64,000 nucleotides of DNA from a virus (IMGVR_UViG_3300043788_000060:46257-110256); one strand, 5' to 3'; positions 34,870 through 41,838 are shown, counted from the first letter of the stretch. Made by a program: numbers and translations. Notes: a model not told the origin generated them from the letters alone.

Positions 34870-37800
34870 ATGGCTACCGACTCAGTAGACCTAAGCAGCA
34901 TCTGGGGGAATACCTCCGCTTCGGCTCCTCAATCTAGCTCGACCGACTTGAGCAAAATTTGGGGTTCGGGAGGGGGTGTTCCTCCTGTTGTGTCTCGGGC
35001 GCAAGAAACCCCTTCGTCCAGCATAGACCTCAGTTCAATCTGGGGCGGAGGAGAAGCTCGTCCGAATAATGGACAAACCGCCCCGTTACCGGTTCAGCAC
35101 CTCTACCAAGACTCTTCGCAGCCGTGGTATAAACGGGCATGGGATTTCGCGAATACACCACTGACCGAGAGCCTGTTCGGCCTACCCGAAGAACGCCAAG
35201 GCGCGGGTGGTTTTGAACGCGGGGTCGAACACATTGTTTCCGGATTGACAAGTCCGCTTTCCGTGGCTCTAACCGCTGCTACGTTTGGGACCGGTGGAAT
35301 CATTGAATCAGCCGGAGCTTCTGCACTCAAGGAAGCCGGTTTGACGGCTGCTGAGATTGCGGACGCTACCAAGGCTTCCCAAGTCGCGGTGGACGCGGCT
35401 AAAGCCGTCCCAGAGGGCGCTACAGCTATTACTGACGCTGTCAAGGACGCTGGACTCGATCCGGCTCTCTGGAAGCGGGCACAGGGCATTTTGTATGACA
35501 ACGGCCTGACCGAGCATGACCTGCTGGGGGGCAATGCTGTCGAGCGCGGGGCGTTCCAAGTTCTACGCAATACCGTACCCGATCTACCAATTGCCGTAAC
35601 TGCGAGGGCCGCTAAAACCGCCAATACCCTGTTGAACGCAGGATTCACCCTCCAACAATTGGAATCAGCATCCGCGATGTCCCCCCGGTTTTTGGATGCT
35701 CTTAAAGAGGGGGACTACGACCACGCCCTAGAATACGGCACAGAGATGTTTGCTTCGGGGGCCCTCGGAGTTCTGGGAGCAAGTCATGCCCTGCACTCCG
35801 CTGGCGAATTATTCAAACCCCTAGTTGAAAACAACGCCGTTCGTCCTTCCGACGAATGGAACGCGATTACCCGGGCCAACCAAGAGCGCGAAGCCCAGCA
35901 CGCCGAAGCCGAACAACACGCCATCAATTTGTCCAAGCAAGCCAAGGATTTGCTAGGGCACGCGGAACCACGTCCGATTTTGGGTGATACCGCCGAAGTG
36001 AAATCCCAGAAGAATCTGGAACTGGCTACGGTTCTACATCAGATTGTAACCGGCGGAGACCAGACGAAAGCTGCAACTTGGCATGACGCATTGGCCGAAG
36101 CCGCTGGCCGCACCGAAGAACCAACGCTGGTTCATCCGAATAATGGACCGGTCGGCAACCCCGACGTTCAATCGCTGGCCGAAAGCTATACCAAATCCGC
36201 AGGCATCGACAAAACTCCACACGAAGGTCTGGTCACCGTAGACCCGGAAGCCGCGAAACGGGTTGCTGACGCCTACGAGGAGATGCAACATAACCCGAAC
36301 GACCCGAAGGTCAAGGCGTCCTACGACGCTTTAATCCGGGAAACCAAGGCCCAGTGGGATGCCGCTAAAGCCGCCGGATACAAACTAGAGCCGTGGCCGG
36401 AAGCTGGACAGCCCTACGCCAATTCCGCAGAAATGGCTGCGGATGTTCGGGACAACAAGCACCTCTACTACTTCCAAGGCGGAGAAGTCCCAGAAGGGCA
36501 CCCGCTCGCGCAGATAGACCCAGAAACCGGAGAAACCTACAACAACATTTTCAGAGCGGTCCACGATTTATTGGGACACGCCAAAAACGGCTACGAGTTC
36601 GGCCCTCGTGGTGAAGAGAATGCTTTCTTAGCTCACAGCCGGATGTACTCGGACGAAGCCATCCCCGCGCTGCTATCCGAAACCAAAGGCCAGAATTCAT
36701 GGGTAAACTTCGGTAAGCACCTCCGCGACGAGAACGGAAATCTGCCCGCCAAAGGTGAGAAGGGTTTTATCCCACCGCCGGAAAGGCCCTACGCCGATCA
36801 GAAAGCTGGCATCCTACCTCCCGAGATCGTCAACCCGCATCTCGGCAAAGAACCTCAAGTAGGAACCCCGATTGAAACACCGAGTCGTGCCAACACCCAA
36901 GTCGTTCACTCGAACGCTGCGGGTGAAGTGCGTGTCGGCGCAGACGGCAGACCGATTGTCTGGTTGAGCCCGGAGGCGTGGGAAGCGTATAATAGAATCG
37001 CGCACCCGGGTGCCATAATTCTAGGGGTCAGCTACTCTCCGGACGAAGCTGCTGACATTGCCAAGAAACTGCTCAAAGCAAACGAACCGGGAGACGCCCA
37101 ACAAGTTCTCGATTTGTTCTGGAAAGCCCAGAATGTTTCAAAACAAGGATTGCTCACAGCGGCTAAAACCGGAACGGATGTCACGGTTGCTGCCGAGGAA
37201 CTCCACCATACATGGGCCCGAGAATTGTCTAAGGACGGAGAAATTGCAAACCATCTAAAACCCAAGCAGTGGATCAAACTAAATGATATAATACCCCCAG
37301 CTTGGACTGCGGACATGGATCGGCTGGGGTACGAAAAAGACCCGATCTCCCGTGTCATAGAAACCGCACACCAGTTTAGGGCTGGAAAAGCAAAGGGTAT
37401 AGTTCCAGATACCGATATTGTTCGGTTTTTGGACTCCTACTATTCCGAAGTTGAAGCAACCCACGGGAAGAATGTTCTTGAAGAAGCAAACAAAATCAAT
37501 GACATTGCTGCCCAACACATAAAGGACATTTATGAAAACAGAAGAACGAGACAAACTACTCCAGAAGGTGGGCTGGCCGACCGACAAACAGACAACGGAC
37601 AGCTACCTAGCGTGGAAGCAGGGCGGGAAACTGGGCCTCCTAAAGTGGGTTCAGGAGAACCACCAGAAGGCTTAACCGCCCGCGAAGACAAAGAATTCAG
37701 CAAACTTTCCGGTCTAAAACTCCGTGTAGGAATGGGAGACGCGGGGAGTGCCGGTTTAGTAACTGGGGACAACGATGTATTGATTGGTAGAGACCACGCC

Positions 37801-40800
37801 GAACTCGCAAGAGAAGCTGGGTACAAAGCTACGCCTGCTGTCGGAAACAAACCCGGAGAAGACCTCTACTCCAAGTTCTTCAGAGATGGTGGTGTCAGAA
37901 TCCGGTCGTTTGGCGGAACTGTCAATATCGACTTCATGGAACCGAACGCCGATACTTGGGACAGAGTCTATCGCTCGATAGCCTCGGTTCCGGACGCAAA
38001 TTATTATCGGGTAGAATTCCGTCCACTAAAAGGTGGAACCGGTTTCAATATCGATGCCTACGACAAAGACAACCTGTTATTCAAACTCAAGGATTTGGAA
38101 AACGGCGGAACTCGCCCGGCTCCTGCGGGAAGTGTGCAATATTTCAGGCAAGGATTGTTATCTCGCGAAGGGGAATACAGGAATAAAGAACCCAGATTTC
38201 CCGGGTTGGCCGCTCGGGGCTCCGTAGACTTCGAAGACATCAAGCCATATCTAACGGATGAAGAGCTTACCAAACATGACTCTCCCGAAAAGAAAGCTCT
38301 GCTTACCGCCGCATTTAACGCGATGCCCGACGCCGACGAATGGAAAGAAGCAATTAAAGCTGGACGTGCCGGACAGATGTGGTATGAAAGATCGTCCCGC
38401 GCCTTCGATGCCCTGCTCGATTCCGGTGCTGACTTCATCTCGAAGAAAGATAAATCGAAATTCCTGAATTTCGTCGCCGCTCTTTCTCCGGTTCAGCCGG
38501 TCCGTCAAAACCTGCTCATGGCTTTGAACCTTTGGTCAAAGTGGGACAAAGCCGGTCGTCCGACAGACGTTGAATGGAAAGACGGAGCCCCGAATAAGAA
38601 CGCTTCGCTCTGGAGAATTCTCAAGGGACGAGGAAACACACAGGGAGTAGACCTGCCAGCAAGAATGAACAACGCAATTCGTGCGTTGCAGGGCGAGCCC
38701 CTGTCCGGACCCAAAGTATCGGCGTTTACCACCAACTTGGGTAAGGATGTCAACCGGGTCACCAACGACACATGGATGGCCGTGTTCGGCGGTCACGATC
38801 CGAACCGGATCAACAAGCCCGCCGTTTACGACGCCATGTCCGCCAAGGTCCGCGAAGCGGCTAAATCGGAAGGCATCGCCCCGCGTCAAGCCCAAGCTGC
38901 GATCTGGAGCTTCATCAAGTCCCTAGCCGAACTATCAGGCTGGGGCAATGACCGCTGGATTCCGCCCCAAGAAATCATCAAGCAAGGTCTGCTCACGCCA
39001 GAGTTAGTTGGTATGCACTCGGCGGATTTCGCAGACATGCTTCAGAACGATCCCGAAATCCGGGAAGCTATCCGGAAAATAGGAGGAGACCTAAATGCCC
39101 TCGACTCAAAACTCAAATCTTACGTCCCCGGAAAGCCTGCCGAGGGAGAAGCTGCGGTCGCTAGTCCTCAACTTCTTAACGCGGCTCAAAGACTCGAAGC
39201 CGCCCGCACCGACTCAAGAATAGCAGCGCACCTCGCACGCAAACAAGAACCCGGTTTGTTCGATACGGAATTCCGTCCGAATAATGGACTATTTGCGCGA
39301 AACCCAGAACTCACCCAGCAGATCGATTCGAACGTCTTCAAAAACCAGCCCAAGGAATATCAGGACCTTGTCCTCAACTCGTTACGTAGAGTAGCGAACG
39401 GAGAACTGTCTGACCGCGAGCAAGCGGCAGCGAAATTCCTGCGCGACGAACAGGATAAGAACTTTGAAATCGGCTCGTCGAACGACCTGCTCCATCACTA
39501 CCTCGAAGACTATATGACCCGCGTGTACAAGGACACCAACCCACAGGGCAAGGTGATTTTGTCGGACGCCAAGGGCGGCAGATTCGCGACCAATGTTTCG
39601 ATGGCCAAGCAGCGGGTGTACGACTCGAACCTGACTGCGTTGCTCAAATCTCCGAAGCAGATGCTGCTGGACCCGGTAGACATCACGGCCAGAGGTCGGG
39701 CTATGCTCATTAAAGCAGCGGCGAACCGGCAGTTGATTGATACGCTTCGGGATAAGTTTACTCGTGCGTCAGACGGTCGGCCTGCGGTTGTATTGTCTGG
39801 GGCCGGACAGGTTGTCTCTGGCGCAAACGGCGAGGACCCGAAGACGTTCATCGATCCGAACCGCGTTCGTAAAATCAACATCTCACCGAATGTCGTAGAG
39901 CAGTTATCAAAATCCGGCGACTTACAGAGATTTTTGGACGAGGGTACGATCCGGGATATCACACCGTATGTCCGCCCAAACAATATTTCTGCTGCAATCG
40001 AAAAGTTGGAAGCGCAATACGATGAAGTGGGTAACAACAAACTTCGCACAGATATCATGTATCTGAAGTCGGTGTTGAACAACAAAGATTTCTCGGGACT
40101 CAAAGATTTCAACGACAAACAGCCGAAGCAATACGCTTGGGACCCGCAGGACTATATCAGCTTGGCGAACGGCGCGATGAAGGGCTGGAATTTTGTTACA
40201 AACGACTCCGCCGGGAACGGTGTGTATGTCCGTAGCGATATCAAGGTACATCCTGAATTTGCCGAGTATCTCCAGAATCGTTTGGGTCTAGCTCCGTCCG
40301 ACATTGCAAAGCACCCTGTGGGTAAAGCGTTACTCGGAGCAGGAACTAAGTTGAAGGAAACCCTGCTATCGCTGTCACCATTCCACATGGTGCAGGAAGC
40401 TCTGCGTGGAATTATGGTGGGAGTGAATCCGTTCCATATCACCGGTCCAGACATTCTGACCGGCGAGAAAGTAGACCCCACCGATCCGAATTCGCCGACG
40501 ATCATCCGCAAGGCCGTCGAGCATGGGTTTACGACCGGCACGGATTACAATGCCTTACAAGCACACAGCGAGGGCGTGGCGTCTGGTGGCGGTGGATTGC
40601 TTTCGAAAATTCCGGGAGTAGGCAAAGTCCTGTCTAATTCTCTAGATTGGTACCAGAACTTCCTCTTCAAGCGGTACATACCGGCGCTCAAGGCCCGCTC
40701 TGTTGAATTGATGTACCACGAATATCAGAATGCTCACCCTGATTGGTCGGTAGATAAGATCGCCAAAGCTGCTGCTATGCACACAAACGATACGTTCGGC

Positions 40801-41838
40801 GGAATCAACTGGAAGGCAATGGGCCGGTCTGCTACTACTCAGGATTGGGGCCGGTTAATGTTACTCGCGCCCGACTGGCTCGAATCCGAAATGCGGTCTG
40901 GTGCAAGACTATTTAACAAGGACGAAGGCGGACTGGGCCGGGCACAAGTAGCTAAGATGGCTTTGGGACTTTGGGGAATTGCCAGAGTTCTCAACTTAGT
41001 AACTACAGGTAAGCCGCACTTAGAAGCACCATTCGGGCTGGCTGTGAAAAATAAGGAAGGCAAGGAAACGGTATTTTCTATCCGGACTTTGCCAACCGAT
41101 TTGTTACATGCCGCGAGCGATCCTGTCGGATTCGTTCAAGGTCGTCTATCTCCTGTTGTTCGCTCCGGAACCGAGTTAGTAACTCAGCGCGATCAATTTG
41201 GCCGCAAGTTACAGCCACAGGATTTATGGGCTGACGTGTTCAGAAATATGGCACCCATCCCGCTACAGGCCGTAAACCAAGCTATATCTGGGACTGGCCC
41301 GCAAGTCGGAAACGTCGGACAAGCCGTAAAGGCCGTAGGCGGAACTGCGCAAACTTACCAGACCCCTGCACAGAAATTAGCCGCCGATCTGGCTAGTTCT
41401 CATACCGAATCGGGACCGGTAGACCCGGCCCAGATGGCAAGGCACTCCCGGATAATTCAACTCGAAGATCAGGCAAGGGCCGGAGAAATTTCTTGGCCGG
41501 ACCTCTACAAGCTGGCCTACCAGACGGATCAGATTTCTGAGTCCGAGTTGAAAACCATAGAGGCAAATGTCAAGTCCACCCAAGGTATGGACCCGAGCAT
41601 GGCCGCGCTTTACACCAGAGCTTCGCGCCTACCTGCCAAGGAGTATCTGGACCTCTTGGATATCGCTAATCCCTCGGAGAAAGCCGCACTGGTTCCTCTA
41701 ACTATCAAAGTTCAGAAGCGGTACCTGACCAAAGCGAAAAAGGAAGAAACCCCGGAAGAGCGGGCCCATGATCCTGTGTTTATGCGGCTATTAAACATGA
41801 TCCCCCAATCGCTCCAACAGAAACAAACCCAGAAATAA
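34870..41838 (+). CDS. Giant (2322 aa) ejection / polyvalent internal virion protein
   Basis: DLSSIWG N-terminal repeats; internal RAVHDLLGH, EELHH and WY..LSP..GPKV..VTND.W domains; helical C-terminus. Confidence 0.7.
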   Translation: MATDSVDLSSIWGNTSASAPQSSSTDLSKIWGSGGGVPPVVSRAQETPSSSIDLSSIWGGGEARPNNGQTAPLPVQHLYQDSSQPWYKRAWDFANTPLTESLFGLPEERQGAGGFERGVEHIVSGLTSPLSVALTAATFGTGGIIESAGASALKEAGLTAAEIADATKASQVAVDAAKAVPEGATAITDAVKDAGLDPALWKRAQGILYDNGLTEHDLLGGNAVERGAFQVLRNTVPDLPIAVTARAAKTANTLLNAGFTLQQLESASAMSPRFLDALKEGDYDHALEYGTEMFASGALGVLGASHALHSAGELFKPLVENNAVRPSDEWNAITRANQEREAQHAEAEQHAINLSKQAKDLLGHAEPRPILGDTAEVKSQKNLELATVLHQIVTGGDQTKAATWHDALAEAAGRTEEPTLVHPNNGPVGNPDVQSLAESYTKSAGIDKTPHEGLVTVDPEAAKRVADAYEEMQHNPNDPKVKASYDALIRETKAQWDAAKAAGYKLEPWPEAGQPYANSAEMAADVRDNKHLYYFQGGEVPEGHPLAQIDPETGETYNNIFRAVHDLLGHAKNGYEFGPRGEENAFLAHSRMYSDEAIPALLSETKGQNSWVNFGKHLRDENGNLPAKGEKGFIPPPERPYADQKAGILPPEIVNPHLGKEPQVGTPIETPSRANTQVVHSNAAGEVRVGADGRPIVWLSPEAWEAYNRIAHPGAIILGVSYSPDEAADIAKKLLKANEPGDAQQVLDLFWKAQNVSKQGLLTAAKTGTDVTVAAEELHHTWARELSKDGEIANHLKPKQWIKLNDIIPPAWTADMDRLGYEKDPISRVIETAHQFRAGKAKGIVPDTDIVRFLDSYYSEVEATHGKNVLEEANKINDIAAQHIKDIYENRRTRQTTPEGGLADRQTDNGQLPSVEAGRETGPPKVGSGEPPEGLTAREDKEFSKLSGLKLRVGMGDAGSAGLVTGDNDVLIGRDHAELAREAGYKATPAVGNKPGEDLYSKFFRDGGVRIRSFGGTVNIDFMEPNADTWDRVYRSIASVPDANYYRVEFRPLKGGTGFNIDAYDKDNLLFKLKDLENGGTRPAPAGSVQYFRQGLLSREGEYRNKEPRFPGLAARGSVDFEDIKPYLTDEELTKHDSPEKKALLTAAFNAMPDADEWKEAIKAGRAGQMWYERSSRAFDALLDSGADFISKKDKSKFLNFVAALSPVQPVRQNLLMALNLWSKWDKAGRPTDVEWKDGAPNKNASLWRILKGRGNTQGVDLPARMNNAIRALQGEPLSGPKVSAFTTNLGKDVNRVTNDTWMAVFGGHDPNRINKPAVYDAMSAKVREAAKSEGIAPRQAQAAIWSFIKSLAELSGWGNDRWIPPQEIIKQGLLTPELVGMHSADFADMLQNDPEIREAIRKIGGDLNALDSKLKSYVPGKPAEGEAAVASPQLLNAAQRLEAARTDSRIAAHLARKQEPGLFDTEFRPNNGLFARNPELTQQIDSNVFKNQPKEYQDLVLNSLRRVANGELSDREQAAAKFLRDEQDKNFEIGSSNDLLHHYLEDYMTRVYKDTNPQGKVILSDAKGGRFATNVSMAKQRVYDSNLTALLKSPKQMLLDPVDITARGRAMLIKAAANRQLIDTLRDKFTRASDGRPAVVLSGAGQVVSGANGEDPKTFIDPNRVRKINISPNVVEQLSKSGDLQRFLDEGTIRDITPYVRPNNISAAIEKLEAQYDEVGNNKLRTDIMYLKSVLNNKDFSGLKDFNDKQPKQYAWDPQDYISLANGAMKGWNFVTNDSAGNGVYVRSDIKVHPEFAEYLQNRLGLAPSDIAKHPVGKALLGAGTKLKETLLSLSPFHMVQEALRGIMVGVNPFHITGPDILTGEKVDPTDPNSPTIIRKAVEHGFTTGTDYNALQAHSEGVASGGGGLLSKIPGVGKVLSNSLDWYQNFLFKRYIPALKARSVELMYHEYQNAHPDWSVDKIAKAAAMHTNDTFGGINWKAMGRSATTQDWGRLMLLAPDWLESEMRSGARLFNKDEGGLGRAQVAKMALGLWGIARVLNLVTTGKPHLEAPFGLAVKNKEGKETVFSIRTLPTDLLHAASDPVGFVQGRLSPVVRSGTELVTQRDQFGRKLQPQDLWADVFRNMAPIPLQAVNQAISGTGPQVGNVGQAVKAVGGTAQTYQTPAQKLAADLASSHTESGPVDPAQMARHSRIIQLEDQARAGEISWPDLYKLAYQTDQISESELKTIEANVKSTQGMDPSMAALYTRASRLPAKEYLDLLDIANPSEKAALVPLTIKVQKRYLTKAKKEETPEERAHDPVFMRLLNMIPQSLQQKQTQK
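37532..37675 (+). CDS. Candidate overprinted 47-aa ORF (+1 frame) inside the giant protein
   Basis: SD AAGGA 5 nt before ATG; MKTEERDKLLQKVGWPTDKQTTDSYLAWKQGGKLGLLKWVQENHQKA; the main frame is linker-like here. Confidence 0.5.
   Translation: MKTEERDKLLQKVGWPTDKQTTDSYLAWKQGGKLGLLKWVQENHQKA
39095..39223 (+). CDS. Candidate overprinted 42-aa ORF (+1 frame) inside the giant protein
   Basis: SD AGGAGG 8 nt before ATG; contains amphipathic PREKLRSLVLNFLTRLKD. Confidence 0.45.
   Translation: MPSTQNSNLTSPESLPREKLRSLVLNFLTRLKDSKPPAPTQE

Follow-up and report, generated by a model that had tools for sequence, protein, structure and literature searches.

Two putative small genes nested out of frame at the module ends of a giant modular phage protein

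This report concerns two short open reading frames (ORFs), termed here ORF1 and ORF2, that lie wholly inside a much larger gene of a virus recorded in IMG/VR. The whole stretch of DNA that was analyzed (hereafter, the window) is 64,000 nucleotides (nt) long and corresponds to bases 46257-110256 of the 110,256-base-pair (bp) record IMGVR_UViG_3300043788_000060. The large gene occupies positions 34870-41838 on the + strand, encodes a modular protein of 2322 amino acids (aa), and is the last ORF of a long block of + strand genes without PHROG or Pfam matches. The 2322-aa protein itself has a single Pfam match, DUF7178 (aa 1158-1350), in addition to two PHROGs of unknown function; its N-terminal (aa 1-450) and C-terminal (aa 1485-2322) parts are conserved, and its central modules are variable. 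Given its size, position, and modular build, it may be an ejection protein, as it was called in the first-pass annotation of this DNA. Searches of cultured phages with the giant gene (blastn and tblastn) yielded no DNA match and no match to the C-terminal module, and the sole tblastn matches were distant DUF7178 genes of mycobacteriophages.

ORF1 (37532-37675, + strand) encodes 47 aa in the +1 frame of the giant gene. Its Shine-Dalgarno (SD) sequence, AAGGA at 37522-37526 (+ strand), is separated by a 5-nt spacer from the ATG at 37532, and both the SD and the ATG are held by the last codons of a conserved block that we refer to as module M3 (36787-37539, + strand; aa 640-890). ORF2 (39095-39223, + strand) encodes 42 aa, also in the +1 frame, and overlaps the C-terminal helices of the DUF7178 module (38317-39264, + strand; aa 1150-1465), for which an HhH-GPD DNA-glycosylase fold is predicted. 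The SD of ORF2, AGGAGGA at 39081-39087 (+ strand), is written on main-frame Gly-Gly-Asp codons and stands 7 nt from the ATG at 39095, which is immediately preceded by a +1-frame TAA. Both ORFs, which the first-pass annotation had described as led by well-spaced SD sequences, were thus recovered with spacers of 5 and 7 nt. A survey of ribosome-binding sites in front of the phage's own genes revealed AAGGA, AGGAG, or GAGGA placed 4-8 nt upstream; both nested SD sequences are of this type, and that of ORF2 is the strongest site in the survey.

The ORF1 peptide carries the motif [YWV]PTxxQ...A[WYF]xxGG..LL, and the ORF2 peptide has a conserved amphipathic core (EKLRxLxLxFLxRLxDSKPP) between Ser/Pro/Thr-rich ends. 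Counted from the translations, the net charge is about +3 for ORF1 and about +2 for ORF2, i.e., both products would be basic. Neither translation contains Cys, a hydrophobic N-terminus, or a signal peptide, and no name for either peptide was found in Pfam, PHROGs, or NCBIfam. Both peptides look helical by sequence pattern, and neither gave a confident fold.

Relatives of the giant gene were collected as viral contigs through protein-guided scans, and their host proteins are 33-92% identical to that of the window in the relevant modules. ORF1 was found in all six distinct relatives that have the upstream block (L003, L004, L007, L008, L011, and L016), with its ATG at the same place in 6/6 and an open frame of 45-58 codons. 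Its SD reads GGAG, GAGGA, or AAGGA in these relatives, though the main-frame residue encoded there varies among K, G, and E. ORF2 was found in nine relatives, where it has an open frame of 42-62 codons and starts with ATG in 8/9, the remaining one (L008) having TTG one codon upstream. Its upstream SD is GGAGGAGA or GGAGGAAA in seven of them (L003, L004, L007, L008, L011, L016, and L019), and the corresponding sequences are GGAGTGGA in L009 and GGGGGTGA in L020. Conservation of ORF2 reaches as far as L019, whose host module is 38-46% identical, and weakly L020 (33-35%). In most relatives, the ATG has a +1-frame stop at a distance of 0-3 codons upstream, which often adjoins it directly. Conservation of SD plus ORF in homologues, which the first-pass annotation had named as a check, was therefore observed in six relatives for ORF1 and in nine for ORF2.

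Tests of +1-frame identity, synonymous variation, codon-position pattern, and chance were run across the whole giant gene and not on the two ORFs alone. For the first, five homologues were compared over 217 gap-free segments of 20 codons, and the identity in frame 0 was subtracted from that in the +1 frame, giving a mean difference of -0.31 (standard deviation, 0.12). Only three of the 217 segments, at codons 1426 and 1431 (ORF2) and at codon 902 (ORF1), had a +1-frame identity equal to or above that of frame 0, and these three are free of +1-frame stops in every sequence. Synonymous variation, assessed in seven homologues over 25-codon segments, reached its gene-wide minima at codons 1424 (0.27 of expectation), 922 (0.33), 1468 (0.33), and 1403 (0.36), so that, in line with the reduction anticipated in the first-pass annotation, variation at both ORFs is down to about 0.3 of expectation. 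The minimum at codon 1468 coincides with a copy of a genome-wide 15-bp motif and with no ORF. On a finer scale, the dip over ORF2 extends from its SD (codon 1403) to codons 1449-1451, just short of the ORF2 stop. Synonymous sites are near saturation between most homologue pairs.

The codon-position pattern is shifted in the same places. At frame-0 third positions, the divergence per site is 0.51-0.60 in the flanks but drops to 0.40-0.43 within ORF1 and to 0.28 within ORF2. Inside both ORFs, divergence at the first and second positions rises at the same time, with the first position (i.e., the wobble position of the +1 frame) being the most variable. Such a shift fits selection on a +1-frame protein, and not recent recombination or an aperiodic RNA element. 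In addition, the substitutions in the +1 peptides among relatives are conservative. Given the main-frame protein and its codon usage, the chance of an open frame over ORF2 is 0.04-0.67 per sequence (joint, 10^-7.7) and the joint chance of a start codon is 10^-5.3, the corresponding values for ORF1 being 0.35-0.60 per sequence (joint, 10^-2.2) and 10^-3.5; these joint probabilities assume independent sequences and are thus overstated.

Both ORFs keep company with particular modules. According to a module map that covers 18 relatives, ORF1 occurs together with M3 in 7/7 sequences having DNA (the window and six relatives), whether or not a further module, M4, follows, and it is absent in the three loci that do not have M3 (L009, L019, and L020). 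The block common to the relatives stops within a few codons of the ORF1 stop. ORF2 occurs with the full DUF7178 module in 10/10 sequences, including L009, whose protein ends about 20 codons later, and this second association is physically forced, since ORF2 overlaps a folded part of the module. The first-pass claim that the ORFs travel with their upstream domains when these are shuffled is thus borne out, with that qualification for ORF2. The comparison suggests that each nested gene probably forms one evolutionary unit with the module whose 3' end carries it (M3 with ORF1, DUF7178 with ORF2).

Across the giant-protein family (the window, L003-L020, and P0038-P0046), the central modules, among them the phrog_3170 domain, M3, M4, and DUF7178, have been gained, lost, and reordered. 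For example, the phrog_3170 domain precedes M3 in the window but follows DUF7178 in P0041 and P0044. A moderate synonymous dip (0.58 of expectation) was also seen at codons ~1526-1550 (window positions ~39445-39520), where the conserved C-terminal part starts.

With regard to the origin of ORF1, a profile of seven ORF1 peptides was searched against 1.84 billion representative proteins, which revealed 33 matches at E<1e-3, including 8 at E<1e-10 (best, 5.7e-15). Three of these, P0019, P0020, and P0034, are leucine-rich-repeat or ankyrin proteins and were dropped as repeat artefacts. The remaining matches have in common a core of ~35 aa, [YWV]PTxxQ[IV]...[FYW]xA[WYF]xxGG...LL, and an alignment of 25 sequences displays the shared PT..Q...A.xxGG pattern. 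Carriers of the core are of three kinds, i.e., free-standing proteins of 46-73 aa, tandem duplicates, and larger proteins in which the core forms the C-terminal tail. The family has no name in Pfam, NCBIfam, or the ESM Atlas, the last of which gave no usable ORF1 match.

The codon-usage score of the +1 frame over ORF1 is the best among the +1 segments of the gene (99.9th percentile), and frame 0 there stands at the 2.6th percentile of frame-0 segments. Over ORF1, the main frame shows little conservation and a high content of Gly, Pro, Glu, Thr, and Arg. Since codon usage is best in the +1 frame and poor in frame 0, and frame 0 is poorly conserved, ORF1 is probably the older frame and the overlying linker the younger, overprinted one. 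Two proteins from metagenomes, P0008 and P0014, have a segment resembling aa 1485-1550 of the giant protein at the N-terminus and an ORF1-like domain at the C-terminus (E values of 2e-9 and 1e-12, respectively), a hint that the ORF1-like domain and the giant protein may be functionally tied. A search for P0008 and P0047 in viral contigs found neither.

ORF1-like tails occur in other metagenomic proteins as well, at the C-terminus either of a P0048-like membrane protein or of a protein resembling aa 1485-1550. A two-gene chromosomal locus in an Acidobacteriaceae metagenome-assembled genome (L072:8001-9295; DAIDKP010000006.1) lies among housekeeping genes, between those for class II ribonucleotide reductase and DnaK, and consists of a P0048-family membrane protein gene followed by a gene whose 87-aa product is a homologue of the giant-protein segment at aa 1485-1550. 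This locus suggests that the phage may have an acidobacterial host and that host and phage may have a module in common.

The module that carries ORF2 could be characterized in more structural terms. The Pfam DUF7178 profile scores 37.7-42.8 bits on module members (gathering cutoff, 27), and an AlphaFold2 (AF2) model of aa 1150-1465, built from a 31-sequence alignment, has a predicted local distance difference test score (pLDDT) of 88.9 and a predicted template-modeling score of 0.88. The top 22 matches of a wide VIA search with this model (Z 10.2-5.7) are all HhH-GPD enzymes or a related queuine-salvage enzyme, the best being Tm1821 Ogg (Z 10.2; root-mean-square deviation, 3.7 A; 177 aligned residues), with further matches to EndoIII-3 (Z 8.4), MutYX (Z 7.8), and OGG1 (Z 7.6). 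Foldseek returned no significant match for the model in the Protein Data Bank (PDB), and at the sequence level the Pfam HhH-GPD profile matched 0/31 members (DUF7178 alone matched, in 31/31) and no PDB chain was matched. The model argues that the DUF7178 module has the fold of the HhH-GPD glycosylase superfamily, in agreement with which some mycobacteriophage records label DUF7178 genes "glycosylase." Two residues of the module that are 18 residues apart, K133 (codon at 38713-38715) and D151 (38767-38769), are invariant in 31/31 sequences; in this superfamily, the HhH Lys is expected some 18-20 residues ahead of the catalytic Asp, and the spacing is a lead that K133 and D151 may correspond to K120/D138 of Nth. 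Thus, the module shares its predicted fold with HhH-GPD glycosylases such as Ogg, Nth/EndoIII, MutY, and AlkA, and differs from them in having an extra C-terminal helical extension, in being embedded in a giant phage protein, and in giving no sequence match. The small gene that follows the free-standing "glycosylase" gene of phage Scout was examined as a candidate and is not ORF2-like.

ORF2 falls on the part of the module corresponding to protein aa 1408-1457, where the model places helices 259-269 and 284-308 with confidence, and the main frame under it is well conserved. The first-pass annotation had described the main frame at both ORFs as mostly linker, which holds for ORF1 but not for ORF2. 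Similarly, it had placed the start of each ORF at the end of an enzyme-like domain. ORF2 indeed belongs to a module with a predicted HhH-GPD fold but starts within the folded part, and M3 has no recognizable fold, its AF2 model having a middling pLDDT of 67 and no structural match above Z 5. In codon usage, ORF2 reaches the 95.9th percentile, a high score among +1 frames, and because the main-frame score at the same place is normal, ORF2 is probably the younger frame, having arisen over the helices at the C-terminal end of the glycosylase-like module.

Two further features lie close to ORF2. The 15-bp motif mentioned above, GTCCGAATAATGGAC, occurs at 39275-39289 (+ strand), inside the giant gene and 52 nt past the ORF2 stop, where it is under synonymous constraint in relatives and marks a junction at which relatives carry an extra module. 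The window contains 30 copies at up to 2 mismatches (0.16 expected), and three of them are on the + strand of the giant gene (35060-35074, 36134-36148, and 39275-39289). Those at 36134 and 39275 flank the variable cargo region, and the motif could be a cassette-exchange or regulatory site. The second feature is a possible RNA structure. RNAalifold predicts a weak consensus over ORF2 (-9 kcal/mol over 160 nt, with no covariation support), in which the ORF2 SD (UAGGAGG, 39080-39087) pairs with a conserved CUUCUU inside ORF2 (39172-39177); this pairing, which shows no covariation, may be due to chance or may be a way to limit ORF2 translation.

On comparative sequence evidence, we consider it almost certain that ORF1 and ORF2 are genuine, so far unannotated same-strand overlapping genes, and likely that they are units linked to their modules, with ORF1 probably the older frame of its pair and ORF2 probably the younger of its own. 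On this explanation, ORF1 and ORF2 would each be translated from the mRNA of the giant gene, starting at their own SD and start codon, so that a small basic protein of 42-58 aa would be produced beside the giant modular one. An older, small ORF1 gene may have been engulfed when neighboring genes fused by read-through, the linker then being written over it, whereas ORF2 may have arisen directly over the helices of the module. The small proteins would be putative partners of their modules, acting as inhibitor, chaperone, or adaptor.

Several observations weigh against this explanation. The pairwise statistics ignore shared ancestry, and hence the z-scores as well as the joint probabilities are overstated. 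Moreover, a segment elsewhere in the family is equally constrained and has no conserved alternative ORF, namely, aa 1844-1870 of the L007 protein (L007:7580-7660; also present in L003, L004, L008, and L016), which belongs to a module missing from the window, carries the motif HVRFNDRTGPNGEKLLHLEELQSDWHQKGR, and displays synonymous variation of 0.30 of expectation. It was considered as a third nested ORF and rejected owing to stops and lost starts in several sequences. Because of this segment, synonymous constraint by itself is insufficient, and the case for the nested genes rests on constraint combined with a start codon, an SD, an open frame, and +1 periodicity. Additional points are specific to one ORF or the other. 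ORF1-like domains occur in bacterial chromosomes unrelated to M3, which speaks against a strictly M3-specific function. As for ORF2, its linkage to the module is the forced one noted above, a search of its profile against 5.8 billion clusters found no free-standing homologue, and its N- and C-terminal thirds are low-complexity Ser/Pro/Thr sequence.

The occurrence of the ORF1 family away from M3 also bears on a serious rival, which we regard as possible though somewhat unlikely, namely, that both ORFs are real accessory genes (e.g., for host takeover or regulation) that are unrelated to their modules, ORF1 having survived the fusion and ORF2 having been overprinted, and that they are kept in place by the overlap. 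The ORF1 family has free-standing members and others that form the tails of unrelated membrane proteins, including in a region of housekeeping genes on an Acidobacteriaceae chromosome. Codon usage suggests that ORF1 predates the linker, and overlap alone would give the observed linkage. However, the common block ends near the ORF1 stop whichever module follows, which implies that M3 plus ORF1 is exchanged as one piece, and the metagenomic fusions of an ORF1-like domain with a segment resembling aa 1485-1550 hint at a functional tie.

Another possibility, favored in the first-pass annotation, is cognate inhibition: each small protein, like an immunity protein, would neutralize the cargo enzyme next to it while in the producing cell and would stay behind on packaging and injection of the giant protein. 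In its favor, the module before ORF2 has a predicted glycosylase fold with a conserved Lys and Asp, and harm to DNA, whether in the producer or inside the capsid, would be plausible; the nested genes move with their upstream modules; and the order of domain and then small gene is like that of effector-immunity pairs. Against it, M3 lacks an enzyme-like fold match, the free-standing DUF7178 genes of mycobacteriophages have no ORF2-like neighbor, and the ORF1 family is also found apart from M3. The net charges of +3 and +2 are likewise at odds with it, as the known protein inhibitors of DNA glycosylases, Ugi and p56, are acidic DNA mimics. Taken together with these points, we hold cognate inhibition to be unlikely for this pair of genes. 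A broader arrangement, that is, a built-in partner system in which each cargo module brings along an out-of-frame gene whose product binds the module in the producer and is not delivered, is put forward here as a tentative and rather unlikely idea.

We think it very improbable that the two regions are untranslated nucleic-acid elements, such as a structured RNA, an internal SD-like site at which ribosomes pause, or a site for recombination or regulation. Such elements would accord with the constraint without an ORF at the nearby 15-bp motif (39275-39289) and at the stretch in relatives described above, and with the RNAalifold pairing between the ORF2 SD and the conserved CTTCTT. Nevertheless, the consensus fold is weak, the constraint shows codon periodicity in the +1 frame, the start codons are kept (with ATG to TTG as the sole change), and the +1 peptides vary conservatively, that of ORF1 having significant protein homologues elsewhere. 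Programmed ribosomal frameshifting, which would yield shortened forms of the giant protein that end in a different C-terminal tail, is the least probable reading, to which we give hardly any weight, given that, although SD-like sequences can stimulate frameshifting and some metagenomic proteins carry an ORF1-like domain in frame as a C-terminal tail, most relatives have a +1-frame stop at 0-3 codons upstream of the ATG, the relatives share no slippery sequence, and the feature that is conserved is a start codon at an initiation-type SD spacing.

Genes nested in this manner have a precedent in the lambda Rz/Rz1 pair, in which the whole of Rz1, with its own start, is contained in the +1 frame of Rz, and stretches of either gene that are under constraint coincide with tolerant stretches of its partner (PMC5295617). 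ORF1 and ORF2 resemble Rz1 in lying wholly inside a larger same-strand gene, in the +1 frame, with their own start and ribosome-binding site and under purifying selection, and ORF1, like Rz1, lies over a tolerant region, in its case the linker. They differ in other respects. The Rz1 product is secreted as a lipoprotein and has a lipobox Cys, whereas ORF1 and ORF2 encode neither a signal peptide nor Cys, and therefore their products would not be spanins. In the present case, the host gene specifies a modular protein of 2322 aa and contains two nested genes, each at the end of a module, and ORF2 lies over a folded, conserved segment, such that both frames are constrained at once.

A second likeness is to effector-immunity (polymorphic toxin) cassettes and to the chaperones of type III secretion effectors, given that a small gene sits at the 3' end of a module and is exchanged with it. 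In those systems, the partners are separate downstream genes, with documented binding and neutralization, whereas ORF1 and ORF2 are nested out of frame. In our literature search, no account of genes nested within those for giant modular phage proteins was found.

Gene callers never report out-of-frame nested genes, and consequently such proteins are missing from phage annotations; the comparative evidence for ORF1 and ORF2 is unusually clean. ORF2 would provide a natural case in which the same 130 bases specify two proteins, both under constraint and one being a folded segment of an enzyme, and ORF1 would illustrate how a gene fusion can bury an older gene beneath a new linker. Should the built-in partner system hold, the small product would act as an inhibitor or holding chaperone for its module, and ORF2 would then represent a novel type of basic peptide that inhibits or partners an HhH-GPD glycosylase and is read from the same DNA as the last helices of that enzyme. 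More generally, if the small proteins are partners of cargo modules, they could supply ready-made binders or inhibitors for uncharacterized enzyme domains and may explain how phages of this kind handle potentially dangerous enzymes before packaging.

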